The notes: generated by a model from the letters alone, not told the origin. 64,000 nt of DNA from Candidatus Omnitrophota bacterium (GCA_043821025.1 JBDRDF010000032.1:11261-75260); one strand, 5' to 3'. Positions 1,768 through 28,240 are shown, numbered from the stretch's first letter. A program made the numbers and translations.

Positions 1768-1848
1768 CGAGGGCTTATTTTTTGACTTGAAAACTTAAAT
1801 GGATCGGAGTAAAATAACTGCAAGACTAGGAAGGAGGGGATGGGTACT

Positions 1849-2433
1849 ATGATGAAAATTCTAATGTCAATAACTTTAGTGACAACATTTATCTTGTTAT
1901 TTATCACAACCGCTTTAGCAGCGACTTTAGTCGTAGCCGACTTCGACTTAGGAGATAAGCCCAACAATATAGGAGGCGACTTCGGCGCTTGGAATAAGGA
2001 CGAGTCCGATGACAGCCAAGGATGCAAAAATTCCTTCAACTCCGATATAAAGCACAGCACAAGGGGTTACTCAGTCCAACTCGACTACGACGTTGATTCC
2101 CCACGTCCCGCCTACAACGGCTTTTGGATGGAGCTCGAAGGTCAGAATATCTCTAAGTTCGACAAATTATCTTTATGGATAAAAGGAGATGATGTATCCG
2201 GTTTCTCCAAGAAGATAAAGTTGGAACTGAAAAACACCAAAGGCGAGGTCGGAAAGTATACCATAACCAACCTAACCAAGGACTGGCAACAGGTAAATAT
2301 CCCCCTTAAGGAATTCAAGGGCCTAAACGACCTTAAATCCATGACCGAATTCGTCATCGTCTTCGATGACATCACCTGTGCAGCCAAGAAGACGGGGACG
2401 ATATACATAGACGATATAGCGTTTGTGAAGTAA
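1849..2433 (+). CDS. Secreted CBM11/CIA30-like beta-sandwich domain protein (paralog family member)
   Basis: An SD sequence (AGGAGGGG) precedes the ATG, and a signal peptide is present. It carries the shared family signature (FWMELEG...LSLWIKGDD...KLELKNTKGE...DWQQVNIPLKEF...TGTIYIDDIAFVK). Confidence 0.5.
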   Translation: MMKILMSITLVTTFILLFITTALAATLVVADFDLGDKPNNIGGDFGAWNKDESDDSQGCKNSFNSDIKHSTRGYSVQLDYDVDSPRPAYNGFWMELEGQNISKFDKLSLWIKGDDVSGFSKKIKLELKNTKGEVGKYTITNLTKDWQQVNIPLKEFKGLNDLKSMTEFVIVFDDITCAAKKTGTIYIDDIAFVK

Positions 2434-10766: not shown

Positions 10767-11474
10767 GTGAAACTAGTGAGAAAAATTGCATTACTAATTG
10801 GGTTGGTAAGTCTTGTATTCTTAGGTCTAACGGCAACAGCGCAAGCTACTATTTGGACGGACAACTTTGATGATGGAGTAGCAGATGGTTGGACCGTAAG
10901 AAAAGGTACCTGGCTTGTCGATGCTGGACAGTATAAGTCTAACGCAGGAGAGAACTATTGGACCGCCTCAACGTTTGACGCAGCGGGTTCGTCCTTCACA
11001 ACAGGGTATGGAAAAACAGACTTTAAGAGGGACTATATCGGGACTGAAACATTAGAGGGAATCCACTTTGGATATGTTCCTAACTCAACCATGTGGTTTG
11101 CAGGCGTATATGAATACGCTCCTGAAAATGCACATGTGATCTTCATCAGGCCGTACACATGGACTGGAACTGACTGGTCACCATCGGCTTCTGGGACCAA
11201 TTTGCCAATCCCTGCTCTTACTGCCGGTAGTTGGTACAACTTATTGTTGGAGGTTTCGGATACGGAAGCGAAATTGACGCTTGGAGGTAATTCCGTTACT
11301 CGTACATTAGCAGGCGTACCAGCTGGGAACATTGGGCTTGGTTCAAGCGTCGGTTGGACATCCTTTGATAATTGGGAAGCAGGGAACCAGCCAATACCAG
11401 AACCGACAAGCCTTCTTTTGTTGGGCTCCGGTTTAATTGGTTTGTTAGCTTTTAGAAAGAAAAGCAAAAGTTAA
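10767..11474 (+). CDS. PEP-CTERM-anchored secreted protein with a concanavalin/LamG-like (DUF1080-like) domain
   Basis: A GTG start is preceded by AAAGGAGGGAGG, and a signal peptide is present. It has FDDGVADGWTVRKGTWLVDAG. The C-terminus is a canonical PEP-CTERM signal (PIPEPTSLLLLGSGLIGLLAFRKKSKS*). Confidence 0.65.
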   Translation: MKLVRKIALLIGLVSLVFLGLTATAQATIWTDNFDDGVADGWTVRKGTWLVDAGQYKSNAGENYWTASTFDAAGSSFTTGYGKTDFKRDYIGTETLEGIHFGYVPNSTMWFAGVYEYAPENAHVIFIRPYTWTGTDWSPSASGTNLPIPALTAGSWYNLLLEVSDTEAKLTLGGNSVTRTLAGVPAGNIGLGSSVGWTSFDNWEAGNQPIPEPTSLLLLGSGLIGLLAFRKKSKS

Positions 11475-11593: not shown

Positions 11594-12658
11594 ATGCATA
11601 GTTTTAAATGTTATATATTTAATTTCATTTTTTTTATTATAACGCTGTCAGTAAGTTCAAACCCACTTGCGCAAGCCGATGGCTACGATAGAGCTATGTG
11701 GGTCTGGGAGCAAAGCACGCGAGACGCCCTCTATAGTCCTTCTCAAAATCAAGAGCTTCTTAATTTTTCTCAGACAAAAGACATCAAAACCTTATACCTT
11801 TACAGCGATTCATATCTGGGTATAAATGACATAATTGAACGCCCCGATTATTATCGTTACTTTATAAGTGAAGCTCATAGTCGGGGTATGCAGGTTCATG
11901 CGCTTCTCGGCTCTATGTATCTTCAGACCTGGGAATATATACTGCCGGAAAAAAGAGAAGATGCTCTTTCGATGGTGAGAAATGTCCTAGAATACAACCA
12001 AAATTCTTCGGCCTCAGAGAAATTTGATGGTTTTAATGTGGATATCGAACCCTATCTTTTGTCCGATTGGGGGGATAACCAACCTTATTATTCCGAACAG
12101 TATCTCGATGCCCTTTCAGCTCAAAAACAGCTCGTCATTAACTCTGGGCAAAATATCGAATATGGACCATGCATTCCGCGTTGGTATGATGAGGTCTCTT
12201 TAATCCAGAATATAACCTGGAACGGTGAAGTTAAGCCATTGTATCAACATTTGCAGGATATAGGTAGCTACGTAACCATAATGGATTATGTAAATGATGC
12301 GGATGGGATTGTAAATAACGCTTCAGATGAGCTTCAATACGCCGATAGTATAAATCGCAAGGTAGTCATAGGTGTAGAAACGCAAGACGTTATACCTTCT
12401 TGGACAACCTTCTACGGATTTAGCGAAGAAGAGATGGAGGCAGTGTTAAATGCTGCCGAAGGTAACTTGAAAAATTATACCTCGTACGATGGATTTGCAA
12501 TACACAGCTACGATTCTTATGCAAAGATGGCTGTAATCCCAGAACCCGGTAACATCATTTTGCTGGGATTAGGGTTAATTGGTTTGTTCGCTTTTAGAAG
12601 GAAAAGAAAAAGCATTAGTTACATTGACAAATTATATTTTTGTGGTATCTTAATATAA
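11594..12658 (+). CDS. PEP-CTERM-anchored secreted GH-A-clan-like TIM-barrel protein (GHL family paralog)
   Basis: A signal peptide is present. It has RAMWVWEQ... and a GFNVDIEPY (D-x-EP) motif. The C-terminus is VIPEPGNIILLGLGLIGLFAFRRKRKS. Confidence 0.6.
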   Translation: MHSFKCYIFNFIFFIITLSVSSNPLAQADGYDRAMWVWEQSTRDALYSPSQNQELLNFSQTKDIKTLYLYSDSYLGINDIIERPDYYRYFISEAHSRGMQVHALLGSMYLQTWEYILPEKREDALSMVRNVLEYNQNSSASEKFDGFNVDIEPYLLSDWGDNQPYYSEQYLDALSAQKQLVINSGQNIEYGPCIPRWYDEVSLIQNITWNGEVKPLYQHLQDIGSYVTIMDYVNDADGIVNNASDELQYADSINRKVVIGVETQDVIPSWTTFYGFSEEEMEAVLNAAEGNLKNYTSYDGFAIHSYDSYAKMAVIPEPGNIILLGLGLIGLFAFRRKRKSISYIDKLYFCGILI

Positions 12659-12713: not shown

Positions 12714-14984
12714 ATGAAGAAGACCTCTAAAACAATAGCATTATTAGTTGTTTTTATATTTATTTTATTCAATAGTTTACCCGCCTGTTTTGCAAGAGAG
12801 AAACAAATTACCCTGACCTTTTGGCAATTAAGCGCAAAAGAAGATTTTATGCGCTTAATTTTGGATGATTTTGAAAAAGAGAATCCCAATATAAAAGTTA
12901 ATATGCAAATTCTCACCTGGGATTATGGTTTTGATAAAATCGTAACTTCGATAGCAGCTGGAAATGCCCCTGATGTATGCGAATTGGGATCTACTTGGGT
13001 GCCAACGTTTTCTACCAGCGGGATATTGGTCGACTTGACCGACGATTTTAAAGATATAAAAGATAAATACTTATTCTGGGAATCTGTGAGTTATGAGGGC
13101 AAGCTATTCGGGGCTCCGTGGCTGGTAGGAACAAGGGCGTTATTTTATAACAAAGATTTATTTAAGCGTGCGGGCTTAGATCCGAATAAGCCCCCAAAGA
13201 CATGGCTTGATTTGTTGGATTATTCCAAAAAAATACACCAACCCGACAAAGGGATTTATGGATTTGGAATTTATGTTGGTGAGCCGTATGCTCCCTGGCA
13301 ACTCTTTCTCCCCTTCGCTTGGTCAAACGGTGCGGATGTCTTAAGCCCAGATTTTAAGACCTCCCTCATTACTTCGCCAGAATTTCAAGAGACGTTGGAA
13401 TTTTACAACATATTAAAGGCGTATTCAATTCATGATAGGCAGGCCCAAATAAATCAGGCATTTGCCGAAGGAAAGGTTGGCATACAAATCTCCGGCGCTT
13501 GGAACCTAATCCTCATTTCCCAAAATAACCCGGAGTTAAATTACGGCGTCGCAATAGTTCCTCGACCCGACCTAGATATAGGAAGACCCGTTTCATTTGC
13601 TGGCGGTGAAGTTTTTGTGATATTTAAACAGACCAGACAAAAGGAAGCAGCCGTTAAGCTAATGAAATTTTTATTAAGGGAAGAGAATATTATGAAGGTG
13701 GTTAAATCCCAGAAGAACGTCTTGCCATCCAGTAAGGAGAGCATCCGCCACCCCTATTTTAAAGAGCAGCCCAATCAAAGAATTTTCTTCGAACAGATGA
13801 TGAGCTCGGTGGCGGCTCCAGAACATCCAAGTTGGCCAAAGATAGAAGAGCATTTAACGAGGGCAATAGAGGAAGTCGTCCTTTTAGATGTGTCTCCAAA
13901 GGAAGCTCTGCAAAAAGCGGATTTAAAAATCAATGACATTTTGAAAAGCAAAAAGATAAAAGCGGGTCTTAGCGATAAAATCTTATCTTGGATTTTCATT
14001 GTATTTATCTTTTCAGCCGGGTTAATAATTTATTTATGGCAAAGGTTCAAGAAGAGAGAAATGGTGCCAGCAACTAAGTTAAGATTTAAGAAAATTGCCA
14101 CAGGTTATCTGTTCATCTTTCCCTGGCTTCTGCTGTTTTTTATTTTTTCGCTTTTTCCATTAATCCATTCGATAATAATCAGTTTTTCCGACTATAATCT
14201 TCTTGAGGCCAGGTTTTCTTTTATAGGTTTTAAAAATTATTTGGATGTTATGTTCGATCCTCATTTTCATAAAGCCCTTTGGCATACCATTTTCTTCGCC
14301 GTAGGGACCGTACCCTTTACGACGACTATCGCTTTATTCTGCGCTCTGTTAATAAATCGAAAATTACCTTTTAAACAACTATATCAGGCAGGCCTATTTT
14401 TGCCGGTTGTTACCTCGGTGATTGTAATTGCCAGTATATTTAGTTATGTCTATTCTCCCGATGGCTTATTGAACATCATCATCGATAGGACAGGGACATT
14501 CTTAAGTAAGTTTGGTATCCATGGCATACAGAGTCCAAAACCGAGCTGGTTATTAAATACGAAGTTAGCCTTGCCCAGCATAATGGCTATGTGCGTCTGG
14601 TCGAGCTTCGGCTATTACACCATTTTGTTTTTGGCCGGGCTTCAAGCCATTTCTCAGGAGATGTACGAAGCAAGTGCTATAGACGGCGCTAATTGGTGGG
14701 GCCAGTTTCGCTGGGTTATTTTGCCACAACTTAAGCCCATAATGTTATTTATCATCGTAATTAATAGCATCCGCTCCTTTCAGGTATTCCCGGAGATATT
14801 TGCAATGACCCAAGGAGGGCCGTTGGGCTCGACGACCACCGTCGTCTATCATCTTTATGAGATGGGGTTCCATAGATTTGAAATGGGAATGGCTTCGGCC
14901 GTTGGCTATATTTTATTTATTGTCATAATGTGCCTTACATTAGCCCAGCTTAAGATATTTAAATTTGGGGAAAGCGTAGGATAA
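12714..14984 (+). CDS. Fusion of an ABC sugar-transporter substrate-binding protein (family 1) with a MalF/UgpA-type permease
   Basis: The N-terminal roughly 430 aa form an extracellular solute-binding domain with a signal peptide. An extra TM helix follows (SWIFIVFIFSAGLIIYLW), then a 6-TM permease with an EAA loop (LAGLQAISQEMYEASAIDGANWWGQFRWVILPQ). It is a single uninterrupted ORF. The track's longer TTG start is at 12684. Confidence 0.65.
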   Translation: MKKTSKTIALLVVFIFILFNSLPACFAREKQITLTFWQLSAKEDFMRLILDDFEKENPNIKVNMQILTWDYGFDKIVTSIAAGNAPDVCELGSTWVPTFSTSGILVDLTDDFKDIKDKYLFWESVSYEGKLFGAPWLVGTRALFYNKDLFKRAGLDPNKPPKTWLDLLDYSKKIHQPDKGIYGFGIYVGEPYAPWQLFLPFAWSNGADVLSPDFKTSLITSPEFQETLEFYNILKAYSIHDRQAQINQAFAEGKVGIQISGAWNLILISQNNPELNYGVAIVPRPDLDIGRPVSFAGGEVFVIFKQTRQKEAAVKLMKFLLREENIMKVVKSQKNVLPSSKESIRHPYFKEQPNQRIFFEQMMSSVAAPEHPSWPKIEEHLTRAIEEVVLLDVSPKEALQKADLKINDILKSKKIKAGLSDKILSWIFIVFIFSAGLIIYLWQRFKKREMVPATKLRFKKIATGYLFIFPWLLLFFIFSLFPLIHSIIISFSDYNLLEARFSFIGFKNYLDVMFDPHFHKALWHTIFFAVGTVPFTTTIALFCALLINRKLPFKQLYQAGLFLPVVTSVIVIASIFSYVYSPDGLLNIIIDRTGTFLSKFGIHGIQSPKPSWLLNTKLALPSIMAMCVWSSFGYYTILFLAGLQAISQEMYEASAIDGANWWGQFRWVILPQLKPIMLFIIVINSIRSFQVFPEIFAMTQGGPLGSTTTVVYHLYEMGFHRFEMGMASAVGYILFIVIMCLTLAQLKIFKFGESVG

Positions 14985-15001
14985 TCTAAAGGGATATTTT
15001 T

Positions 15002-16192
15002 ATGAGAGAAAAGAGAAAGCTTAATATCGCAATAACCATTTTATTATTGATCATCGTGGTTTTTACTTTATTCCCACTTTTTTTAATGTTCAGCACCTCT
15101 TTAAAAGCCACAGGCACATTGGCCAAGAAAGTAACTCAAATTGTTATCGCGGATTTTAATAGGGAAGAAAATGGATATAAAAAGATAGAATTCACCGCAG
15201 ATGAGTCAGGCGATTTTATATGGAACGCGCATATCGACCAAGATATACGAAAGTTCAGTAAATTAGAATTCCTTTATAAGGCGGAAGGGGATTATAAATT
15301 TAAAATAGGTTTAATAGATACGCTGGGAAAAAGCAGTTTTTTAGAGATATCTAAATACGCGATAGAAAAAGAAACCGAGTGGCAGAAGGTAACGATACCC
15401 ATAAACGACTTTGATTTAAAAACTATTGACCCAAGGATGGTGGAAGGACTTGCTATCGTCTCCGATGCGCCCCGTTCTGGCACTATTTATCTGGACGAAA
15501 TTGTTTTGTGTATTAAAAAGGTCACTCTTATAAATTACGTCGATGTTTTAGTCAGCGGGCCATTCGGCCGTTATTTCTTTAATAGTTTTTTGATTTCTAT
15601 TTTGGTTACGTTTGGGAATATTTTGTTCTGTTCAATGGTGGCCTATTCCTTCGCAAGAAAGGAATTTCCAGGGAAGCACGCATTATTTCTTTTGATAATC
15701 GGCAGCATAATGATCCCACCTCAAGTCTTAATGGTCCCGATGTTTATACTGATGAAAAACATCCATTGGTTAAATACTTATTGGGCACTCATCATTCCAG
15801 CCTTAACTGAGCCCTTTAATATATTTTTGTTGCGTCAATATATTAGCGGCCTGCCAAAAGATTTGGAAGATGCGGCTATAATAGATGGCGCAAATGATTG
15901 GCAGGTGCTTTTCAAGGTTATTATGCCTTTGTCAAGGCCAGCGTTGGCAATAGTGGGCATTAATACTTTTATGGGAAGCTGGAATACATTTTTGTATCCA
16001 TTTTTGTTGACCAATACGACCGAGATGCGGACATTGCCGGTTGGCCTCGCTCTCTATAAGAGTTTATACAGCGTTGACTGGACTCATTTGATGGCGGCTT
16101 CCAGCATAACGGCCATACCTGTTATTATTGTATTTTTGTGCTTTCAACGACATATCATCGCTGGTCTTACCGCAGGAGCTCTTAAAGGATAG
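15002..16192 (+). CDS. MalG/UgpE-type ABC permease with a CBM11/CIA30-like domain inserted in the first extracytoplasmic loop
   Basis: After TM1, about 130 aa match the CBM-like family (EFLYKAEGDYKFKIGLIDT...EWQKVTIPINDF...GTIYLDEIVL). A permease core follows with an EAA loop (LLRQYISGLPKDLEDAAIIDGANDWQVLFKVIMPL). Confidence 0.65.
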   Translation: MREKRKLNIAITILLLIIVVFTLFPLFLMFSTSLKATGTLAKKVTQIVIADFNREENGYKKIEFTADESGDFIWNAHIDQDIRKFSKLEFLYKAEGDYKFKIGLIDTLGKSSFLEISKYAIEKETEWQKVTIPINDFDLKTIDPRMVEGLAIVSDAPRSGTIYLDEIVLCIKKVTLINYVDVLVSGPFGRYFFNSFLISILVTFGNILFCSMVAYSFARKEFPGKHALFLLIIGSIMIPPQVLMVPMFILMKNIHWLNTYWALIIPALTEPFNIFLLRQYISGLPKDLEDAAIIDGANDWQVLFKVIMPLSRPALAIVGINTFMGSWNTFLYPFLLTNTTEMRTLPVGLALYKSLYSVDWTHLMAASSITAIPVIIVFLCFQRHIIAGLTAGALKG

Positions 16193-16202
16193 CGCAATTA
16201 AA

Positions 16203-17216
16203 ATGGAAACTGGGGTAAGTTATTTCGCAAACAGGGATTTAAGGCACGTAAAAAGCGATTTAGTTGCAATGAGAAAAAATCATTGCAGTTACGTCGTACA
16301 TACATTTTCGGAAATAGACCTTCAATATTATAAAGAGAACATGCGTCAAATTGTAGCTGCAAGCGTTGAGGTTGGTTTGGAAGTGAGGATTGACCCGTGG
16401 GGAGTGGCAGGGCTATTTGGAGGGGAGGCCTATTCATATTTCGTTGCAGAGAAATTAGAGACAAGACAGATCGTATCCGATGGCAGAAGTGTGCCGCTTG
16501 CGTGCCCAAACAATCCTCAAGCTCGTCTTTTTTTGAGGCGTTGGATGGACGAAGTCATTGATTTAGGCGCCAAAATTATTTTCTGGGATGAGCCGCACTT
16601 TTATGAACCCCATTGGGTAGGCGATAAGGATGAGGAGCTTTGGGGATGTAAATGCGGTTGCTGTCAGAATTCTTTTAAAGAACGTTTCAATCACAAGATG
16701 CCCGATACTTTAACCGACGAAATAGAAGATTTTAAACAGCAGAGTTTAATCCTTTTCTTAAAGGAGTTATGTGACTATTCGAGTTCAAAGGGATTGAAAA
16801 ATAGCGTTTGTCTGTTGCCGAATGCGAAACATTTAGAGAGCGGTTTTTGGGATGAAATAGCGGAGATAAAGTCGCTCGATAATATTGGGACCGATCCTTA
16901 CTGGGTTGAGATTAAAAAAACCGAAAGGAATTTTAATCTGAACGCTTATATTAGAAAATTTTGTAAGAAAATAAATCAACTGTCGAAATCCCATAAGAAA
17001 GAAGGGCATATCTGGATTCAGAATTTTTCTATTCCATCTGGATGGGAAGGCGATATTAAGACCGTTGCGGACATCGCTTATGAGGAAGGCATTAGAGATA
17101 TAGCTGCTTGGAGCTATTACGGTACAAGTGGTATGTCAAGCAAGGCATGCGATAATCCCGAATTAGTTTGGGATGTTTTAGGAAAATCTTATAAGGAGCT
17201 ATTGCGTAAAGAGTAG
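16203..17216 (+). CDS. Cytoplasmic GH-A-clan-like TIM-barrel protein (putative glycosidase, paralog of the GHL family)
   Basis: It has no signal peptide. It has IIFWDEPHFYEP (D-EP) and an RIDPWG motif. The start is taken at ATG 16203, 10 nt after the permease stop. Confidence 0.35.
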   Translation: METGVSYFANRDLRHVKSDLVAMRKNHCSYVVHTFSEIDLQYYKENMRQIVAASVEVGLEVRIDPWGVAGLFGGEAYSYFVAEKLETRQIVSDGRSVPLACPNNPQARLFLRRWMDEVIDLGAKIIFWDEPHFYEPHWVGDKDEELWGCKCGCCQNSFKERFNHKMPDTLTDEIEDFKQQSLILFLKELCDYSSSKGLKNSVCLLPNAKHLESGFWDEIAEIKSLDNIGTDPYWVEIKKTERNFNLNAYIRKFCKKINQLSKSHKKEGHIWIQNFSIPSGWEGDIKTVADIAYEEGIRDIAAWSYYGTSGMSSKACDNPELVWDVLGKSYKELLRKE

Positions 17217-17220
17217 GGCA

Positions 17221-19596
17221 ATGAAATACGGATATTTCAGCGAAGACGGTAAGGAATATATCATCGACAGTCCGCTTACCCCGCGGCCGTGGTTTAACTA
17301 CCTTTTTAATAAAAAATATCACGCCCTTGTATCGCAAACAGGCGGCGGATTTAGTTATTATAAGGACCCCAAGGTTAACAGGATATTGCGCTACGATCAC
17401 ATCCATACCGACCGTCCGGGTAGATATCTATTTCTGCGCGATGAAACTACGAACGAATTCTGGTCAGCAAATTGGCAGCCGTTGAAATCCAAATTGGATT
17501 TTTGGCAATGCCGTCACGGTTTAGGCTATAGCGTAATCGCCTCTAAATATAAAGGAATAGGGACGGAACTGACCTATTTTGTGAATTTACAAGAGCCAGT
17601 CGAATTCTGGCTCATCAAAGTAAAAAATGATTCTAAGCGCAAGAAGATCTTAAAGATTTTTCCATTTGCGGAATTGGTTTGCGGTAATATCGAATTAGAG
17701 AATAATTATAGGAATATACTTTGTTTATATAATGAGGGGTATTTCGATAAGAAATTAAACGGCATAGTTTCTTTTAAACACCCGTTTAAAAAAGAACATA
17801 AGGTAACTTATACCTTTTTTGGTATGGATGAAAAGATAGATGCTTTCGATTGCCACAAAGGAAAGTACTTCGGCCGTTACAACGATAATCAAAATTCCGA
17901 AACCTTAAAGCGTGGCAAGTTGGGTAATAACAATGTTCGCGGCGAAGATATGGTAGCTGTCTTGGAGAAAAAATTAATTTTAAAGCCAGGTCAAAAAAAA
18001 GAGATCGTGGTTATTTTGGGCGTTGCCGAAAGCGAGCGCGATTTAAAAAGAATAGCGAAATTTAAAAATTTGAAATTTGCTAAAAATTCTTTAAAGGCAA
18101 ATAAGCTATATTGGGAAAAGGCATTGGATAAGATCATAGTTAAGACGCCGGATCCAGATTTCGATCTAATGGTGAATATCTGGGGCAGATATCAACTATA
18201 TGCCATTACTTGCTGGCGCGGCACTTCCCAATATCACGGCGGAGAAGGTGGATTGGGCTATCGCGATACCGCTCAGGACATTGAGGGGCTTTTGGCTTTG
18301 GATTTAGATTTGGCAAGAGAAAAATTAGACAAGATACTTTATTATCAATATAACTCTGGCCATGCTGTCTCCGGTTTTTCGGATGTAGAGGGTTCTTGGG
18401 ATAAGCACACAGGCAGTATTGTAATAGGAAAGGCGGATGTGGCTATTTGGTTGGTTTTTACAGTGATCTCATATCTTAAAGAGACAGGGGATTTCAAGTT
18501 CTTAAAAAAGGAATATGGCTTTCACGATGGCGGAAAAACCACTGTATATGAACATATACTAAGAGCGATAAGATATTTATATAGTCAGCGCGGAAGACAC
18601 GGCCTTCCGTTTATTAAAAAGGCTGATTGGAATGACGCTTATGACTCGGTCGGAATAAAAGGAAAAGGAGAAAGCGTCTGGCTTGGGATGGCGTTGGTTA
18701 GAGCCTGTCGGCAAATAGAATCGTTGGCTAATTTTATTGGCGATAGAAAAATAGCCGAGGAGATGAAAGAGAAATCCCGTCTCTTAACCAAAATCATTAA
18801 TAGAGCGGGATGGGATGGAAATTGGTACTTAGCAGCTTTTAACGACGAAGGATTTAAGATAGGGTCAAATAAAAACAAAGAGGGCAAAGTGCCTCTTAAT
18901 AGCCAAACCTGGGCGATTTTGAGCGAACTAGTTCCGCGGGAGAGACTTAAAAAAATCCTAAATAAGATCGACAATTATTTAAATACCGAATATGGCCCGG
19001 TATTATTTTTGCCGTCCTATACAAAATTTAATCCCGGAATCGGAAGGGTTACTGCATTCGCCGCCGGAACGAAGGAAAATGCAGCTGTCTTTTCTCATGC
19101 CTGCGCTTTTAAAATTGTGGCGGATTGTATATTAGGTCGGGGCGATAAAGCCCACGAGACATTTAAAAAATTATGTCCTATGAGTAAAGCTAAGAGCGAT
19201 CACGATAAATATAAAGCCGAGCCATACGTATGGGCAGAATATGTTATCGGGCCAGGAAATAAGGACAATTTCGGCGAAGGTGCATTTACATGGAATACCG
19301 GCACAGCACCATGGATGTTTATGGCTGCCTGCGAATGGATATTAGGGGCGAGGAGGGATTTCGGAGGGCTGCTAATCGACCCGTGCATACCAAAGCACTG
19401 GAGGAGATGTTCTATAAAAAGGCCTTTTAGAGGAGCGACCTATTTGGTCGAAATCGAGAACCCTAAAGGGGTGGAGCATGGGGTTGATAAGCTTATAGTC
19501 GACGGCGTCGAAGTAAAAGGAAATTTAATCAAGCCTCACGGCGACGGAAGAACTCATAACGTTAAGGTGATAATGGGCAATGGTAGGGATAGGTAA
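17221..19596 (+). CDS. GH94-family glycoside phosphorylase (cellobiose/cellodextrin/beta-glucan phosphorylase-like)
   Basis: It is 791 aa with an (alpha/alpha)6-barrel-type sequence (GGEGGLGYRDTAQDIEG...KAEPYVWAEYVIGPGN...LLIDPCIPKHW). The domain order is typical of cellobiose phosphorylases. Confidence 0.65.
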   Translation: MKYGYFSEDGKEYIIDSPLTPRPWFNYLFNKKYHALVSQTGGGFSYYKDPKVNRILRYDHIHTDRPGRYLFLRDETTNEFWSANWQPLKSKLDFWQCRHGLGYSVIASKYKGIGTELTYFVNLQEPVEFWLIKVKNDSKRKKILKIFPFAELVCGNIELENNYRNILCLYNEGYFDKKLNGIVSFKHPFKKEHKVTYTFFGMDEKIDAFDCHKGKYFGRYNDNQNSETLKRGKLGNNNVRGEDMVAVLEKKLILKPGQKKEIVVILGVAESERDLKRIAKFKNLKFAKNSLKANKLYWEKALDKIIVKTPDPDFDLMVNIWGRYQLYAITCWRGTSQYHGGEGGLGYRDTAQDIEGLLALDLDLAREKLDKILYYQYNSGHAVSGFSDVEGSWDKHTGSIVIGKADVAIWLVFTVISYLKETGDFKFLKKEYGFHDGGKTTVYEHILRAIRYLYSQRGRHGLPFIKKADWNDAYDSVGIKGKGESVWLGMALVRACRQIESLANFIGDRKIAEEMKEKSRLLTKIINRAGWDGNWYLAAFNDEGFKIGSNKNKEGKVPLNSQTWAILSELVPRERLKKILNKIDNYLNTEYGPVLFLPSYTKFNPGIGRVTAFAAGTKENAAVFSHACAFKIVADCILGRGDKAHETFKKLCPMSKAKSDHDKYKAEPYVWAEYVIGPGNKDNFGEGAFTWNTGTAPWMFMAACEWILGARRDFGGLLIDPCIPKHWRRCSIKRPFRGATYLVEIENPKGVEHGVDKLIVDGVEVKGNLIKPHGDGRTHNVKVIMGNGRDR

Positions 19597-20698
19597 AAAT
19601 TTTTTAAAGGAAAGTAATCGAAGACTTATCTTAAAGGTCATCTATGAGAATTCACCTATATCGAGGACTCAGATAGTCAGGCATACGAATTTGAGTAAGG
19701 TAACCGTAACGAGGATCGTCAACGAATTGATTAAAAGCGGCCTTGTATTTGAAGGCGAGCAAACCGCTTCCAGCGGAGGCAGGCCTCAGGTTCTTATAAG
19801 GTTGATTCCCGACGCAAGGTATGCTATCGGTGCTGATATTGGAATTTCAGATGTTAAAATCGGTGTGTGCGATTTAAGGTGCAATGTACTTTTTAAGTTA
19901 GAAAAAAAGATCACGCCAAAGATCGAAAGTAACAAATTGGCCGAACTTTTATTTAATTCAGTAAAAGAACTGATAAGATCATCAAATGTTCATGCCGATA
20001 AGGTACTGGGAGTGGGAATCTCTATGCCCGGGGTTATAGACGCTGATAAAGGTATAGTCAAATCATCATTTATTTTAAGCGAACGAAATGTACCATTGGA
20101 GGGAATTTTGGAAAATAAACTTAAGTTGAACGTCGTTGTCGATAGAGACGCTAACGCAGGATTATTTTACGAAAGATTTATGGGTAAAGGCAAGGATATC
20201 GATGATATACTATATATTTATACCCGTAAGAATGAAGCGGGAGAAATGGGAGTCGGCTGCAGTTTCCTTCTTGATAGTCAGATATATCGCGGGGCGGATT
20301 ATTGCGCGGGAGAGATCGGTTTAGCCCACAGCGACGATGAAAAAGAAGCGATTTTTGAGCCATTTTCTTCTTATGAATCAATCCCGTTTCGCAACGCTAT
20401 GCAAGCCGCAAAAAATGGAGATGAACAAGCAAATAAAATTTTATTCGAGGTAGGTGAAAAGATCGGACAGGGAATTTCATTTTTGGTCAATTTGCTAAAT
20501 CCGAAATTGGTGATCGTAGGCGGAGATTTTTCCATGGCGGGAGAGCCGTTTTTTAAATCGCTGGCAAATTCTCTTGAGAGGCATATTTTTGATTTTTCAA
20601 CTAAAGATATAAAGCTCGAATCCTCTTCAGCCGACGAATATTCCGGTATAAAAGCAGCTGCCTTTATGGTCATAGCTAAAACAGTGGGATATAAATGA
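19580..20698 (+). CDS. ROK-family transcriptional regulator (N-terminal wHTH plus sugar-kinase-like domain)
   Basis: It has an N-terminal HTH (ISRTQIVRHTNLSKVTVTRIVNELIKSGLV) and ROK motifs (GVGISMPGVID, GCSFLLDSQIYRGADYCAGEIG). Confidence 0.7.
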   Translation: MVGIGKNFLKESNRRLILKVIYENSPISRTQIVRHTNLSKVTVTRIVNELIKSGLVFEGEQTASSGGRPQVLIRLIPDARYAIGADIGISDVKIGVCDLRCNVLFKLEKKITPKIESNKLAELLFNSVKELIRSSNVHADKVLGVGISMPGVIDADKGIVKSSFILSERNVPLEGILENKLKLNVVVDRDANAGLFYERFMGKGKDIDDILYIYTRKNEAGEMGVGCSFLLDSQIYRGADYCAGEIGLAHSDDEKEAIFEPFSSYESIPFRNAMQAAKNGDEQANKILFEVGEKIGQGISFLVNLLNPKLVIVGGDFSMAGEPFFKSLANSLERHIFDFSTKDIKLESSSADEYSGIKAAAFMVIAKTVGYK

Positions 20699-20714: not shown

Positions 20715-21335
20715 ATGAAAAGGAATATTAAATTTTGTTGTGCGCTATTAGTCTGCATGTTTTTTGTATTTAGCGCTTTTAAAACAGCTGAAGCAGAGGT
20801 AAAGTTGATAGATGATTTTAAAGGACAGGAAAACCTTTTAGGTGGGAAAAGCAATGTGTACCAGCAGGAACCTTCCAGAGCCTACCTTAGTAGAAAGGCA
20901 GTAGAACGAGATGGAAAGAGCGAGATGGTGCTTATGATCAAATACGATAAGAAGAACAAGGGTGGCTCTTATGACTCCGGAGGCTGGTGCGGCTATTATA
21001 CCTTGCTCAAGACAGATAGCACATATTTTGACATTTCAAAGTATAAAAATCTTACATTGTGGGTTAAAGGCGCCCAAGGAGATGAAAATTTTAAAGTGGG
21101 ATTAGCGGATAGGCATTGGGAGCAAGCAGATGATTCAGTCAAATCCGACCAGATAGGCGCCTATCTTAAAGCAGGGAAAATAACCACTGATTGGCAGAAG
21201 GCGACCATACCCCTAAATCTATTCTTAATCGATTTTACCGAAATGTCTTCGCTCGCTATATGTTTTGAAAGCGAGTGTTTTCCTGACGGCAGTGGCATGG
21301 GCACAGTTTATATTGACGATATAGCCTTAGAGTAA
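20715..21335 (+). CDS. Secreted CBM11/CIA30-like domain protein (paralog)
   Basis: An SD sequence (AAAGGAGGAG) and a signal peptide are present. It has GGWCGYYTLLK, LTLWVKGAQGDENFKVGLADRHW, DWQKATIPLNLF and GTVYIDDIALE. Confidence 0.55.
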   Translation: MKRNIKFCCALLVCMFFVFSAFKTAEAEVKLIDDFKGQENLLGGKSNVYQQEPSRAYLSRKAVERDGKSEMVLMIKYDKKNKGGSYDSGGWCGYYTLLKTDSTYFDISKYKNLTLWVKGAQGDENFKVGLADRHWEQADDSVKSDQIGAYLKAGKITTDWQKATIPLNLFLIDFTEMSSLAICFESECFPDGSGMGTVYIDDIALE

Positions 21336-21339
21336 ACAG

Positions 21340-23610
21340 ATGGGACTTAATTTTAAAGGGAATAAAAAAGTATTCTTCATAATAGCGATTGTAGTTATTA
21401 TTTTGTTTATAGCGGCGACATCTATATTTTTCGTTACAGAGATACAGGAATTCAAAGAGAAAATCTTTGAAATAGTAGAAAAGCCTAAAGGGGAATTATT
21501 AAAGCCAATTCTAATCGACGATTTTAACAAAGGTTTTACCAGCGGCCTATTTTATGAACGGATTAATTCCCTCGGGGGCTACCAAGGTACTTGGGCGAAG
21601 AGACCATCCTATAGCCTTATAAATAAGAGCTCAGAAGATAGAATCGGAGAAAAAGGCAAAGCATTAGTTATAGAGTTTAAGAAGGAAGCCGGTTGGTGCG
21701 GCTGGTATACATTATTAAATGGGCTTGATGCCAGCAGATATAATACGTTAAGTTTCTGGGTTAAAGGTGCCGAAGGAGGAGAAAAGTTTGATATAGGCAT
21801 TGCGGATAGCGAAATGCAAGAATTGGAGATAGATGCTGTTTATATTGGAAGTATAAATGCCTTTCTGCGGAAAGGAGTTACCAAGCGTTGGCAGGAGGTA
21901 AAGATTCCATTGTCTAGGATAGCCGGTGAGGTCAATTTTTCATCGTTAGGATCGGTTGTTTTCTGGTTTAAATATGCGGGAGCAGGCAAGATTTATGTGG
22001 ACGATATGATGTTCAGAGATGACCCGGAGATCGCAAGGATTGAAAGGTATAATACCCCAAAGGCAAGATATGCCCGCAGACATCCCCGAGCGATGTGGGT
22101 TTGGAAGACAGACCCGATAATCAATTTGATTGCGAGAGAAAAACTGTTTGAATTTTGCAGGACAGCAGCTATTAAGACCATCTATCTTTATCTTGGGGAT
22201 TTACCAGAAGACACCGAAAAGTTGAGCCAATTCTTAACGGAAGCCCATAACAAGAAAATTTTGGTAGAGGCCTTGACGGGTAACCCCGTATGGTGCCTTA
22301 GTGAAAATCACCAGCTGACCTTGAATTGGATTAAGTCGTTCCTGGAATATAATAAATTCAGGATTTCACGAGAACGGATCGATGGAATCTCTTTGGACGT
22401 CGAGCCATATTTGACATCTGAGTGGGTGCAGGATAGGGAGTCCGTTAAGCGGCAGTATATTGAAATGCTAAGGAAGTGTAGACAACTCATCGATTCCTAT
22501 GAACAGGATTTTCGCTTTGGAGTGGCAATTCCGATATTTTTCGACAAAGAGGAAGATGGACTTTTTGAACAGAGAACGTTAGAGTTAGTCGATTATTGCG
22601 CTTTAATGGATTATTATGATGACGCTCCAAATTTAATCAAAAATGCAAAAAACCATATCGCATTAGCCAAAAAGGCTGGCAAGAAGATGGTCGTGGGAGT
22701 GGAGACACAAGACCTTATCAGTATGCACCAGGGTTTAAGGCGCAATACATTTTTTGAAGAAGGTTGGGAAGCAATGGAGAAGGCGTTGTTGAAACTTATA
22801 AAGAAATATAAGAATAGCCCCGCTTTTGAAGGTGTTGCAATTCATTGTTACGAAAGCTACAGGCTTCTTCCAAAAGGAAGGAACGTCCCGACAAAGGAGA
22901 GGCCAAAAGACGTCCGTTCGTTTGCTTCCATTGGGAGAAGAGGCCGGATAATAATCGATGGACGGTTAGACGATTGGGATACCTCGCTACCTTTCCTTCT
23001 CGATAAGAAGGAAGATATAGTGTTTGGAAGCGGCGGTTGGAAAGGCAAGGAGGATTTTAGCGTCGAAGTTTTTAGCCAGTGGGATGCAGAAAATCTATAT
23101 TTCGCTTTTAAGATAAAAGATGATAAGTTAGTTCAGGAGAAAAGCGAAGGCGATATGTGGGAAGGAGATCACGTAGAGCTTTGGTTAGATGTCGACCTTC
23201 TTGGGGATTATAATGAAGCGATCAATAGCAGTGACGATTTTCAATTTGGATTTAGCCCGGGTAATTTTTCAACGCTACCCGCAGAGGTATACATTTGGAC
23301 TCCCCCCTTAGAAGATATGAATTACAAAGACTACATAGCGATAGGGTCGGCGAAGGTCGACAATGGATATATTATAGAAGCGAAAATTCCTAAAGGAGTC
23401 CTATTTTCCAAGCTGAATGAAGATAGGAAAGTTGAGGCGGAGCCGCTTAATGAATTGCCGAAGCGTTTTTCTAAGGGCATGAAGATGGGAATCGGCATAG
23501 ACCCCAGCGAGTGCGATGGCTTAAATGAACCGCAGAAACTTATGATGTCGTCGGCTAAAGAGAGGATTTGGGGCGATCCGACAACATTTATCATATTGGA
23601 GTTAAAATGA
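21340..23610 (+). CDS. Membrane-anchored multidomain protein: CBM11/CIA30-like domain + GH-A-like TIM barrel + C-terminal CBM9/DOMON-like domain
   Basis: It has an N-terminal TM helix. The CBM-like domain reads AGWCGWYTLLNG...LSFWVKGAEGGEKFDIGIADS...RWQEVKIPL...GKIYVDDMMF. The TIM barrel has RAMWVWKTD and GISLDVEPY. The C-terminus has DGRLDDWDT...SQWDAENLYFAFKIKDD...GDHVELWLD. Confidence 0.5.
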   Translation: MGLNFKGNKKVFFIIAIVVIILFIAATSIFFVTEIQEFKEKIFEIVEKPKGELLKPILIDDFNKGFTSGLFYERINSLGGYQGTWAKRPSYSLINKSSEDRIGEKGKALVIEFKKEAGWCGWYTLLNGLDASRYNTLSFWVKGAEGGEKFDIGIADSEMQELEIDAVYIGSINAFLRKGVTKRWQEVKIPLSRIAGEVNFSSLGSVVFWFKYAGAGKIYVDDMMFRDDPEIARIERYNTPKARYARRHPRAMWVWKTDPIINLIAREKLFEFCRTAAIKTIYLYLGDLPEDTEKLSQFLTEAHNKKILVEALTGNPVWCLSENHQLTLNWIKSFLEYNKFRISRERIDGISLDVEPYLTSEWVQDRESVKRQYIEMLRKCRQLIDSYEQDFRFGVAIPIFFDKEEDGLFEQRTLELVDYCALMDYYDDAPNLIKNAKNHIALAKKAGKKMVVGVETQDLISMHQGLRRNTFFEEGWEAMEKALLKLIKKYKNSPAFEGVAIHCYESYRLLPKGRNVPTKERPKDVRSFASIGRRGRIIIDGRLDDWDTSLPFLLDKKEDIVFGSGGWKGKEDFSVEVFSQWDAENLYFAFKIKDDKLVQEKSEGDMWEGDHVELWLDVDLLGDYNEAINSSDDFQFGFSPGNFSTLPAEVYIWTPPLEDMNYKDYIAIGSAKVDNGYIIEAKIPKGVLFSKLNEDRKVEAEPLNELPKRFSKGMKMGIGIDPSECDGLNEPQKLMMSSAKERIWGDPTTFIILELK

Positions 23611-24866
23611 TTAGAAAGATTACGCTGGCAGGGATATTTATTATTTTATTGTGCAGGAATAACCTCGCTTATCCGGATGGGGTGCTCCTCCAAGACATGC
23701 CGCAGCTTCCTAAAGATGCTGCTCTCGACGAAAGGGAAGATATGTTCGGATATCGAGGCAGGGTGGGCGCATTTGTTCTACCCCCTTCTAGGGTAGGGGT
23801 CTATTTTGATGATTCGGAAAATTATGTCCCTGCCGGTAAGGAGGTAAAAGAACCGACCGAAGCACCTAAGGTAGATACTGGCGTAAAAGGTGGCGTGAAA
23901 GAATTTATGCGAGAAGATGAGTCGATCAAGATAACATATGAAAAGGCAGTAGGAGATAAGACTTTTTGCGGGGCATATATTGTAATCAAAGGCGACCTGT
24001 CCAAATATAAAACTATGACTTTTATGATTAAGGGAAAAACAGGCGAGGAAACATTTGAAATCGGAATGAACGATGTCATATCCAATCGCAGAGAGGATGC
24101 GGTTATGATTGGCTCCGTCCATCGTTTTTTGTCAGACGGCATAACGAACGATTGGCAGGAAGTGAAAATTCCACTTTCGGATTTTTATGGGCCGGATTTA
24201 TCGAAAGTTTATAGTATAATTTTTCATTTTAACGAAGAGGGAAAAGGAACTTTCTGGATCGATGACATCCGTTTCCACGAAGAACTCTTGGTCGATAGAG
24301 AAAAGGAGATTCGAAAGAAGGGATACCTTCTTTTAGACGATTTCGATCACGCAACCACGGTGAACCTTTTGGCTCGGAAAACGAACACGTATAAGAAATT
24401 GCCGTCGGTTTGTCGTATGGCGTGGGATAAAAATGTCCGTTACGGAGATAAAGGGCGGTCACTAAAATTAATTTATGATAAGAAATCGGCGGGTTGGTGC
24501 GGGTATTATACCCTGCTTAACCAAATTGACGGAGAATATTACGATTTATCCGGCTATGACAGGGTATCTTTTATGGTCAGGGGAGAGAAAGGCGGTGAAT
24601 CCTTCGAGTTGGGTATGGCTGACAAAAATTGGCTTATCATCGGAGATTCTTTAAAGGCAGGGCAAATCGAGAAATATCTTCCTTCCGGAGTTACTACCGA
24701 ATGGCAAGAGGCGGTAATTCCATTGAAGGATTTTGGGATGTTGGATTTTTCGGAGATGGGTTCCTTCGTCATCAATTTTAATAAAAAACAGAGCAGCGTC
24801 GTTTATATCGATGATATTAAGTTTCATTTAACCAAATCAGAAAGAAAAGAAGGAGGGGGCCAATGA
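23606..24866 (+). CDS. Secreted protein with two tandem CBM11/CIA30-like domains
   Basis: The ATG overlaps the upstream TGA (ATGA). Domain 1 has FCGAYIVIKGD...MTFMIKGKTGEETFEIGMND...DWQEVKIPLSDF...GTFWIDDIRF. Domain 2 has AGWCGYYTLLNQ...VSFMVRGEKGGESFELGMAD...EWQEAVIPLKDF...VVYIDDIKF. Confidence 0.55.
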
Positions 24867-25528
24867 GGATTTCATTTTTCTTATTGTTTGCGATTATATG
24901 CGTAACGAGCTTTATTTTCGAAGCTTATGCTGAAGAGACTGAAGCTGAAGGATATTCTGTGGCAAAAGTCCCGGAGATGAAATTCAAAATCGATGATTTT
25001 GAAAGAAACGAGATGCTAAATTATTTGAACGGCAAGGCGAATGTGTATGTTATGGCACCTTCTCGAATTATGGTCTCTGTAAGAGAAGATGTATATCAGG
25101 GAGAGAAGACCAATGTTTTAATGCTTAAATACGATAAGAAGAACGAAGGCGGCCCTTATGAAACCGGCGGTTGGTGTGGGTATTACTCCCTTTTAAAGAA
25201 CGAGAAGAAAGGGGAATATTTCAATGCCAGCAGGTTCAAATATCTGACCTTTTTAGTTAAAGGCACCAAGGGAGACGAGAATTTTAAAGTAGGCGTAGCG
25301 GACAGACATTGGGATAAAATCGGAGATTCCCTTAAATCGGAACCGATAGGAAAATATCTGTCTGCAGGAAAACTTACTACCGATTGGCAAATTGCCAGAA
25401 TTCCTTTGGATGTCTATTTTCTCGATTACACAAGATTATCCTCGATTGCAATATGTTTTGAGGGCGATTGTTTTCCCAACGGAGCGGGAAGCGGCACCGT
25501 TTATTTCGATAATGTCGCTTTTGAATAA
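24863..25528 (+). CDS. Secreted CBM11/CIA30-like domain protein (paralog; closest to 20715..21335)
   Basis: It has GGWCGYYSLLKNE, LTFLVKGTKGDENFKVGVADRHW, DWQIARIPLDVY and GTVYFDNVAFE. Confidence 0.55.
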   Translation: MRISFFLLFAIICVTSFIFEAYAEETEAEGYSVAKVPEMKFKIDDFERNEMLNYLNGKANVYVMAPSRIMVSVREDVYQGEKTNVLMLKYDKKNEGGPYETGGWCGYYSLLKNEKKGEYFNASRFKYLTFLVKGTKGDENFKVGVADRHWDKIGDSLKSEPIGKYLSAGKLTTDWQIARIPLDVYFLDYTRLSSIAICFEGDCFPNGAGSGTVYFDNVAFE

Positions 25529-26892: not shown

Positions 26893-28239
26893 ATGCGGCC
26901 ACTTAAAATTGATATATCTGGAGTAAGGGGTGTAATCGGCGAGACCTTAACGCCGGAAGTGATAATAAATTTTTCCTGCACCTTTGGTACATACCTTAAT
27001 TCTGGAGAAGTTGGGGTAGGGTGCGATACGCGCGCATCCAGAGAAATGGTGAAATCCGGCGTTTTGTCGGGCTTGATATCAACAGGTTGTGACATAGTCG
27101 ATTTCGGCATCTGTCCTACGCCGATAATTCAATATATGACCAAATACTTAGGTTTAAGGGGAGCGGTGGCAATTACCGCCAGTCACAATGACAGCAATTG
27201 GAACGCATTGAAATTTATCAAGGCGGATGGAACTTTCTTAAATTTTTATGAAGGAGAAGAATTACTCGATATTTATCACCAAGGCGAATTCTTTAGAGCG
27301 GAGTGGAATAAGTTGGGAAAAATCAATAAATACGATTCCGCCATAGAAATATATGTGAATAAGTTGTGTAAGTATTTGGACACGAATAAAATTCGAAAAA
27401 GAAAATTGAAAGTGGTCGTAGATAATTGTAACGGCGCCGGCGGGGTCGTTGCCAAATTACTTTTAGAAAAACTTGGCTGTGAACTTGTTATGATAAACGA
27501 TGAGATTACAGGCGAATTTTCGCACGACCCCGAACCTAATCCAACTAATATGAAGGAGGTCGCATCTATAATCAAACCGGTCAAGGCGGATATCGGATTT
27601 ATGCTTGATGCCGATGTCGACAGAATCTCAATTTGCACTGAGGAGGGTAAGGCACTAAGTGAGGAATATACATTTGCCATTTTGGTCGATTATATGCTGT
27701 CCAAAAAACGGAGGACGGTTGTAACCAATCTTTCGACTACAAAGACGATAGATGATTTGGCTAAGAAGTACGCGGTTGCTCTAATTAGGGCTAAGACAGG
27801 CCAAGCCTATGTTATTGAGCGGATGATAGAGGAAGGGGGTATTATTTCAGGAGAAGGCAGTGGCGGAGTAGCAGTCGGTGATTTTCAATATGCATTCGAT
27901 GGATTTTTAGCAATGGGATTGATTTTGCAGATGTTAGCCGAAAAGAAGAAAAAGATTTCCGAATTAGCGGACAGCCTTCCTAAGTATTTTATGGTGAAGA
28001 AGAAAATAGAGTGTTCAACCGAAGTCATATATTCAGTGATCGATAAAGTAAAGGAGTCCTATAAGATAGCTAATATGGATTTGACCGATGGGGTTAAAGT
28101 TGAATGGAAAGATAGTTGGCTACACATCAGGGCATCTAATACCGAGCCATTAATTCGAGTTATCACTGAAAGCTGTTCAAAAGATAAGGCTGAGGAATTA
28201 TGCGTTACAGCTGTTGATAAAATCAAGGCGGTCATTTGA
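26893..28239 (+). CDS. Alpha-D-phosphohexomutase (phosphoglucomutase/phosphomannomutase, COG1109 type)
   Basis: The active-site serine loop is a TASHNDSNWNALKF variant. It has a metal-binding DADVDR and a sugar-binding GEGSGG. Confidence 0.65.
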   Translation: MRPLKIDISGVRGVIGETLTPEVIINFSCTFGTYLNSGEVGVGCDTRASREMVKSGVLSGLISTGCDIVDFGICPTPIIQYMTKYLGLRGAVAITASHNDSNWNALKFIKADGTFLNFYEGEELLDIYHQGEFFRAEWNKLGKINKYDSAIEIYVNKLCKYLDTNKIRKRKLKVVVDNCNGAGGVVAKLLLEKLGCELVMINDEITGEFSHDPEPNPTNMKEVASIIKPVKADIGFMLDADVDRISICTEEGKALSEEYTFAILVDYMLSKKRRTVVTNLSTTKTIDDLAKKYAVALIRAKTGQAYVIERMIEEGGIISGEGSGGVAVGDFQYAFDGFLAMGLILQMLAEKKKKISELADSLPKYFMVKKKIECSTEVIYSVIDKVKESYKIANMDLTDGVKVEWKDSWLHIRASNTEPLIRVITESCSKDKAEELCVTAVDKIKAVI

Positions 28240-28240
28240 A

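Follow-up and report, generated by a model that had tools for sequence, protein, structure and literature searches.

The DNA analysed here is a 64-kb stretch, called the window in what follows, from a metagenome-assembled genome (MAG) of a Candidatus Omnitrophota bacterium. At positions 12714-16192 it carries two genes for a predicted ATP-binding cassette (ABC) sugar importer, both on the + strand and tightly spaced. The first gene runs from an ATG at 12714 to 14984 as a single open reading frame (ORF) of 756 residues, in which a solute-binding protein (SBP) is joined through an extra transmembrane helix, referred to as TM0, to one of the two transmembrane domains of the importer (TMD1). The second gene (15002-16192) encodes the 396-residue partner permease (TMD2), whose first periplasmic loop contains a β-sandwich domain similar to carbohydrate-binding modules (CBMs) of families 30 and 11. 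The two protein sequences are exactly those of NCBI MFH1779073.1, publicly labelled only 'extracellular solute-binding protein', and MFH1779074.1, labelled 'carbohydrate ABC transporter permease', from a Candidatus Omnitrophota MAG contig of 83,609 bp. We consider the architecture of both proteins to be close to certain. A scan for promoters and terminators gave counts no better than chance level, and was given no weight.

Pfam detects SBP_bac_1 at residues 44-325 (2e-48) and BPD_transp_1 at residues 538-741 (9e-14) within the one ORF of the fusion gene, and SBP_bac_8 also matches the fusion protein (2.5e-43). In NCBIfam, the N-terminal half resembles binding proteins such as MalE, UgpB and GanS, whereas the C-terminal half resembles permeases such as UgpA and MalF, with the TMD1 part matching UgpA at 1.7e-31 and MalF at 5.7e-21. 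The SBP part has 524 SBP relatives in the PDB. The best of them is 5ci5 (3.6e-51), followed by 5ysb ('Lin1841 protein', 3.7e-39), and 4r9f ('MBP1') and 7x0i (CbpB) are further near relatives; several of these four we take to be oligosaccharide binders.

The hydropathy profile shows, in order, a hydrophobic segment at residues 8-26, a soluble domain of ~390 residues, a second hydrophobic segment at residues 423-441, a basic loop, and the permease helices. We built an AlphaFold2 model of the fusion protein from 62 orthologues, which has a mean predicted local distance difference test (pLDDT) score of 90.9 and a predicted template modelling score of 0.85. It contains a helix at residues 2-20, the SBP fold at residues 32-411, a 29-residue helix at residues 421-449, and then the permease helices. 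From these results, the protein is divided into a signal sequence (residues 1-27, 12714-12794), in which residues 23-26 have low pLDDT, a periplasmic CUT1-type (family 1) solute-binding domain (residues 28-416, 12795-13961), TM0 (residues 421-449, 13974-14060), a basic cytoplasmic linker between TM0 and TM1 (residues 450-465, 14061-14108), and TMD1, a six-helix core of the SugA/UgpA/MalF type with an EAA loop (14109-14981). TM0 reaches a Kyte-Doolittle peak of 2.56 at residues 423-441. The loop following it has 24 residues, of which eight are lysine or arginine and one is aspartate or glutamate, a composition that fits a cytoplasmic location. The permease core, residues ~464-750, aligns with the whole six-helix core of SugA, a subunit of the structurally solved trehalose importer (7cad_A residues 24-294, 1.4e-24). 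As TMD1 covers the complete SugA core, TM0 is without a counterpart in a canonical CUT1 permease.

TM0 lets a periplasmic domain precede a permease core that needs a cytoplasmic N-terminus. The topology is self-consistent, going from the signal sequence to the periplasmic SBP, out-to-in through TM0, along the positive linker, and into a six-helix core that starts and ends in the cytoplasm. Hence, the earlier note, which had read the first gene as a full SBP with a signal sequence, an extra helix and a six-helix core and had placed the SBP on the periplasmic side, agrees with Pfam, hydropathy, the charge of the linker, the AlphaFold2 model and the SugA alignment alike. The signal sequence would be cleaved after 'ACFA'. 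Anchoring of the SBP as a lipoprotein was considered and rejected, as 'LPAC' is a poor lipobox and a lipobox-like motif occurs in only five of the 62 orthologues.

We then inspected how widely this architecture is conserved. In the homologue search, full-length fusions having both Pfam domains (693-763 residues, 30-71% identity) made up at least 68 clusters. They are drawn from NCBI, JGI, ENA and Logan assemblies, and the named ones are nearly all Omnitrophota. Alignments of 19 and of 62 fusion orthologues run in a single uninterrupted frame. TM0 is hydrophobic in all 62, with a minimum peak of 1.82 and a median of 2.58, and the linker after it has a median of six basic residues against one acidic residue and is net positive in 61 of them. 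One genome per species was scanned, and of the 82 loci then analysed by tblastn and for ORFs, 47 have a single-ORF fusion. Since the same architecture occurs in at least 68 orthologue clusters, we regard the fusion ORF as genuine. The claim that it is not a frameshift artefact is thus upheld by an uninterrupted frame in clusters from independent assemblies, and orthologous fusions were found.

Two candidate variants of the layout were rejected. The locus L058, from the Omnitrophota MAG STD1_71, appeared to be a natural split, and the break proved to be a frameshift inside the C-terminal helix of the SBP (~10990-11110) and not at a domain boundary; it is either a sequencing error or a pseudogene. 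An SBP-TMD1-TMD2 triple fusion seemed to be present at L024 and L053, but once translated, both have a stop codon that separates TMD1 from TMD2.

The partner permease is of the SugB/MalG/UgpE type. It matches BPD_transp_1 (5e-18) as well as GlcU, UgpE and MalG, and its alignment with SugB (7cad_B, 3.2e-32) is in two blocks: residues 13-40 correspond to SugB 15-42, which is TM1, and residues 172-396 correspond to SugB 50-278. It follows from the gap that TMD2 residues 41-171 stand in place of the 7-residue periplasmic loop 1. The N-terminus of TMD2 has four lysines or arginines among its first eight residues, which places it in the cytoplasm and loop 1 in the periplasm. The insertion (15122-15514, +) measures 131 residues, in line with the 130-residue CBM-like domain that the earlier note had put in periplasmic loop 1.

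AlphaFold2 models the loop domain as a confident β-sandwich with a pLDDT of 83.9. Its β-jelly-roll superimposes on CBM30 and CBM11 in the fold search, the closest relatives being CBM30, CBM11 and CBM8. From sequence alone, a profile of the domain family matches CBM30 at 1.3e-9 and CBM11 at about 5e-6 among PDB entries, and it also matches residues 104-179 of 5z06_A, the chain of the β-1,2-glucanase BDI_3064 (3.2e-5). The family profile is needed for this, as a single-sequence PDB search with the insertion gave a marginal match only (5z06, E 0.3). The Pfam family CBM30 (PF21582) is matched by 32 of 45 orthologue insertions at E<=0.01, the best at 1.5e-8. By BLASTP, the insertion is also related to four further proteins encoded in the window at 20715-25528 (1e-10, 5e-4, 8e-7 and 7e-7). 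The predicted fold and the family profile agree and confirm the assignment of the insertion as a CBM30/CBM11-like domain. It falls outside the CAZy definition of a CBM, its host protein being an ABC permease without a catalytic domain. CBM30 and CBM11 belong to the type B modules and have β-glucans, xyloglucan and cello-oligosaccharides as ligands (PMC10992016, PMC5686792). The chances that the loop domain itself binds carbohydrate appear about even.

The distribution of fusion and insertion was examined using the 82 loci, an alignment (A4), and neighbour-joining trees of both permease cores, which are rough and mutually consistent. Besides Omnitrophota, the main fused clade contains an Auribacterota-like group and one whose MAGs are labelled Deltaproteobacteria, and a small fused pair (L049 and L051) is placed elsewhere on the tree. 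Fusions from MAGs labelled 'uncultured Planctomycetia' (L009, L012, L014, L016, L017, L019, L020, L023, L041 and L056) fall within the Omnitrophota clade in both trees; these automated labels are probably imprecise. Partner permeases come in two length classes, of about 380-396 and about 425-440 residues.

An insertion at the same site is found in unfused relatives from Thermotogota (Fervidobacterium, Petrotoga and Marinitoga lauensis strain LG1), Atribacterota and Sumerlaeota. Insertion-bearing partner permease genes of Thermotogota and Atribacterota were seen at L039, L040, L044, L060, L064 and L077. In the unfused relatives, for example Fervidobacterium sp. (L040), Marinitoga lauensis LG1 (L060) and Petrotoga sp. 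(L044), the insertion is of similar size and shares motifs with that of the window, whereas the SBP is encoded by a separate gene and is 40-46% identical to the window SBP. Pfam detects no CBM in the diverged insertions of the unfused relatives, and GH94 (glycoside hydrolase family 94) genes were not found within their flanks. Within this subfamily, there were at least two origins of the fusion. The insertion is older than the fusion and more widely distributed, with probably a single loss.

The single-chain layout is not confined to this subfamily. We searched 1.84 billion representatives (50% clustering) with HMMER and classified the best 149, of which 71 have the SBP-TM0-TMD1 fusion, their SBPs being as little as 22% identical to that of the window protein. 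A second family, fused independently and called the P0264 group, comprises about 60 clusters from MAGs of Sumerlaeia, Endomicrobia/Elusimicrobiota, Riflebacteria, Hydrogenedentes and Wallbacteria. Its members share the SBP-TM0-TMD1 layout in one chain and are ~27% (SBP) and 34% (TMD1) identical to the window protein, and their nearest unfused relatives are Firmicutes SBPs. Both loci examined (L083, 8001-18186 of JANQSL010000171.1 in GCA_028284075.1, and L084, 4209-11162) have an adjacent GH94 gene, no adjacent ATPase gene, and a partner permease of 277-301 residues without the CBM insertion. L083 also encodes a LacI regulator, a Glycoamylase (PF10091) protein and a GH1 protein. The recurrent link of fused CUT1 importers to GH94 may be meaningful. 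As to the earlier description of the window importer as non-canonical, it stands for the architecture and fails if meant as a one-off, because many other uncultured lineages have the fusion too, and it is found in no fewer than two subfamilies of CUT1. These distributions indicate that fusion and insertion evolved independently of each other.

Downstream of the transporter on the + strand lie genes that bear on its likely substrate. The first one (16203-17216) encodes a 337-residue protein with no match in Pfam, NCBIfam or the PDB, to which no function is assigned. A homologue is encoded in most long Omnitrophota loci having the fused transporter, and from this recurrence we take the protein to be a conserved uncharacterised member of the pathway. 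A 'WDEPHF' motif was noticed in it by eye. The next gene (17221-19596) encodes a GH94 disaccharide phosphorylase of the cellobiose/chitobiose type, with Glyco_hydro_94 (1.8e-105) and the supersandwich domain in Pfam. Its top PDB match is a cellobiose phosphorylase (3qde, 1.3e-145), and chitobiose phosphorylases follow at 2.5e-134 (8bou) and 6.2e-131 (1v7v). A ROK-family regulator with an N-terminal winged helix, NagC/Mlc-like, is encoded at 19580-20698 (Pfam ROK and HTH_24; NagC 7.5e-47). Then come four consecutive genes (20715-25528) for CBM30/CBM11-like proteins, as judged by Pfam, BLASTP and a joint alignment (A5), one of which also has a CBM9. Reading by eye gave an N-terminal signal sequence for one of the four, the product of 20715-21335. 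Further downstream (26893-30588), Pfam identifies two tandem, overlapping paralogues of the phosphoglucomutase/phosphomannomutase (PGM/PMM) family followed by a PHO4/PiT phosphate transporter, which would fit a phosphorolytic sugar pathway that consumes phosphate. In relatives, the insertion-bearing permease gene directly follows the fused gene, and the linkage of transporter, ROK, GH94 and PGM genes recurs.

Upstream, also on the + strand, two PEP-CTERM proteins, which bear the exosortase sorting signal, are encoded at 10767-11474 and 11594-12658, directly before the transporter. Their main domains were assigned to no Pfam or NCBIfam family, and their sorting signal and position suggest cell-surface members of the same glycan-acquisition locus. 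Near the window edge, the C-terminal part of a second GH94 protein (11-628, +), cut by the edge, is 40% identical to residues 580-786 of the main GH94, and a protein with a retropepsin-like aspartyl protease domain (625-1767) comes after it. A fifth CBM30/CBM11-like gene (CBM_11) is located at 1840-2433 (+). The permease insertion included, the window contains seven copies of the CBM30/CBM11-like domain, two of them in one protein.

The family-1 SBP and the two different six-helix permeases with EAA loops, one of the MalF/SugA type and the other of the MalG/SugB type, assign the system to CUT1, the family (TC 3.A.1.1) of MalEFGK2 and LpqY-SugABC. We read it as a CUT1 type I importer with two built-in periplasmic modules, an ATPase supplied in trans, and phosphorolysis downstream, and we think this reading as a whole likely to be correct. 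Specifically, the SBP would be exported by the N-terminal signal sequence, which is then cleaved, and would be held by TM0 and the basic linker in one chain with the SugA/MalF-type permease. Because only one of the two permeases of the heterodimer is fused, each transporter should have one captive receptor. The loop domain of the SugB/MalG-type partner would bind β-glucan-type chains or oligosaccharides by the pore, or else position the tethered SBP, and an ATPase of the MsmK/MalK type encoded elsewhere would drive import. The imported sugar, β-linked and cellobiose- or cellodextrin-like, possibly chitobiose, would then be cleaved by the neighbouring GH94 phosphorylase, and the nearby phosphoglucomutases would convert the resulting sugar-1-phosphate. 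The most economical reading of the gene content, and a probable one, is that a β-linked disaccharide or short oligosaccharide is taken up and phosphorolysed and that its sugar-1-phosphate is converted further; cellobiose or cellodextrin best fits the CBM relatives.

Several observations weigh against this reading. The window copy of the loop domain stays below the Pfam threshold, with 20.4 bits for CBM30 and 20.4 bits for CBM_11 (PF03425) at a cut-off of 27. It is also a short form, having ~35-40 residues ('G..NSIGGPI…' strands) fewer than most orthologues, a loss that may have changed its binding cleft. The fused subclade of 'Deltaproteobacteria' MAGs lacks the insertion. This subclade, together with the normal-length partners in the second fused family, indicates that the fusion does not require the insertion. 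The substrate is ambiguous, as the match to chitobiose phosphorylase is nearly as good as that to cellobiose phosphorylase and the regulator is NagC-like, and an Amidohydro_1 gene adjoins the transporter at the related locus L001. Finally, no ORF with Walker A and LSGGQ motifs was found in any frame of the window, and an ATPase gene is likewise absent from the 82 related loci by motif scan and from the two loci of the second family by gene calls, the flanks of these 84 loci covering up to 8-10 kb per side and less at contig ends.

The first two of these points also bear on what the loop domain does. It might instead be a protein-protein module, serving as a periplasmic cap or docking platform that places the SBP over the pore, with the rest of the system as proposed above, and we see this as a possibility on the unlikely side. 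Apart from the sub-threshold, shortened copy in the window, it draws on the most conserved motifs of the domain, which are charged ('QD.RKF' and 'D..G') and form no obvious aromatic platform, and on MalF, whose large periplasmic loops dock the SBP, its P2 loop touching MalE. However, the closest relatives in structure and sequence are all β-glucan-binding modules of CBM30, CBM11 and CBM8, and several homologues of the domain are encoded at the same locus and beside GH94 genes, suggesting a shared glycan ligand. The insertion also accompanies a free SBP in Thermotogota and is missing from some fused systems, so it is not tied to tethering.

The ambiguity of the substrate gives rise to a second alternative, in which the importer takes up chitobiose or chito-oligosaccharides, the GH94 protein is a chitobiose phosphorylase, and the PGM-family enzymes act on GlcNAc phosphates. 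The close scores of 8bou and 1v7v are in keeping with it, as is the regulator, which is most similar to NagC, and the Amidohydro_1 gene by the transporter at L001 could be NagA-like. We nevertheless judge it unlikely. The top GH94 matches are cellobiose phosphorylases, and the CBM30, CBM11 and CBM8 relatives bind β-glucans (PMC10992016). Moreover, none of the nearest solved SBPs binds chitin oligosaccharides: NagB1 (7ehp) comes far down at 1.9e-18, and the match to NgcE is weak (8.6e-09). Import of a cellobiose- or cellodextrin-like sugar is the preferred reading.

A more elaborate proposal adds a glycan-capture relay to this import. At the mouth of the pore, the loop domain would hold a β-glucan chain or long oligosaccharide, whose end it would pass to the captive SBP, while the CBM-like proteins of the locus and the upstream PEP-CTERM proteins would pass the substrate inward. 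Taken jointly, these two steps seem to us rather doubtful. If true, they would define a hitherto unrecognised way in which Omnitrophota and related uncultured phyla use polysaccharides, comparable in function to the surface glycan-binding proteins of Bacteroidota but based on an ABC importer.

It is far less probable that the fused protein acts chiefly as a sugar sensor anchored in the membrane, or as a carrier that needs no ATPase. What could be said for this is the lack of an ATPase gene in the window, where the earlier observation that none is adjacent holds, and within the flanks of the 84 related loci. However, the EAA-loop regions that couple to ABC ATPases are preserved in both permeases ('EASAIDGANWWGQFRWVILP' and 'EDAAIIDGANDWQVLFKVIMP') and conserved across the alignments, and the permeases align from one end to the other with SugA and SugB, which belong to an ATP-driven importer of solved structure. 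The lack of a linked ATPase is unremarkable for this transporter family, since a single MsmK/MsiK-type ATPase encoded elsewhere and shared by several sugar importers has been documented (PMC4519317, PMC7658222). The weakest alternative, that assembly, a frameshift or gene calling joined normal SBP and permease genes, to which the usual CUT1 order of SBP, TMD1 and TMD2 lends itself because loss of a stop codon would give a similar ORF, is effectively refuted by the uninterrupted architecture in at least 68 clusters and at 47 genome loci from independent projects, by a dedicated TM0 and basic linker that are absent from unfused systems and required for the topology, and by the sole 'split' Omnitrophota locus being a frameshift within the SBP.

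The fusion and the insertion are thus solid and widespread in uncultured lineages, and they do not overturn the current understanding of ABC importers. Our literature searches found no paper describing an SBP-permease fusion in the CUT1 family, and none describing a CBM inside a loop of an ABC permease. All fusions with an identifiable host belong to MAGs of uncultured lineages, which is probably why the literature is silent. A survey by van der Heide and Poolman in 2002 is said to have found fusions only in two other families. Generic annotation hides both features, so that they are missed when the metabolism of Omnitrophota, Elusimicrobiota and related phyla is reconstructed. The CBM-type loop domain raises the possibility that a transporter subunit recognises glycan chains itself, and the presence of the insertion in a cultured member of Thermotogota, Marinitoga lauensis strain LG1, makes it experimentally tractable.

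Among known systems, LpqY-SugABC (7cad) and MalEFGK2 (2r6g) are the closest solved homologues of both permeases. They share with the window system the SBP superfamily, the EAA loops and the two-permease layout. They differ in that their SBP is a separate protein, and loop 1 of SugB has 7 residues where the window permease has the 131-residue domain. They encode their own ATPase, SugC or MalK, at or near the same locus. MalF also has a large folded periplasmic loop domain, P2, which lies between TM3 and TM4 of a TMD1-type subunit and is not a CBM homologue. In contrast, the window insertion is a CBM30/CBM11 homologue located between TM1 and TM2 of the MalG/SugB-type subunit, and hence is not a P2-type loop. 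P2 would be a plausible functional analogue if the insertion helps to dock the SBP. The relatives of the insertion with solved structures, CBM30 of Clostridium thermocellum Cel9D-Cel44A (2c24 and 1wmx) and CBM11 of Lic26A-Cel5E (1v0a), belong to secreted glycoside hydrolases and bind β-glucans or xyloglucan (PMC10992016). The window domain is shorter than these modules, is embedded in a transporter loop, and is a putative binder.

The tethering of the receptor finds its nearest parallel in GlnPQ and OpuA of Lactococcus lactis. The membrane parts of both are homodimeric, and each complex has two or four receptors. The window system differs in having a heterodimeric membrane part, the added TM0 helix and, as would follow from the single fused permease, one receptor. 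Tethering of an SBP to the translocator has precedent in type I importers, and the gains proposed for it are a high local concentration and a fixed stoichiometry of the receptor (PMC8025302). In GlnPQ and OpuA, as in the window importer, the receptor is covalently tethered, which keeps it near the pore and fixes the stoichiometry (PMC8025302, PMC11065425). GlnPQ and OpuA belong to amino-acid and compatible-solute families with cluster F domains (PMC8025302), whereas the window receptor is a ~390-residue MalE/UgpB-like SBP of CUT1. Tethered-receptor importers such as these two are the main experimental systems for docking of and competition between binding domains on a translocator, and all handle amino acids or osmolytes; the window importer offers a natural single-chain receptor-permease from CUT1 that should be useful for single-molecule and structural work on sugar import. 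By analogy, it would work like the tethered-receptor importers while lying outside the GlnPQ and OpuA families.

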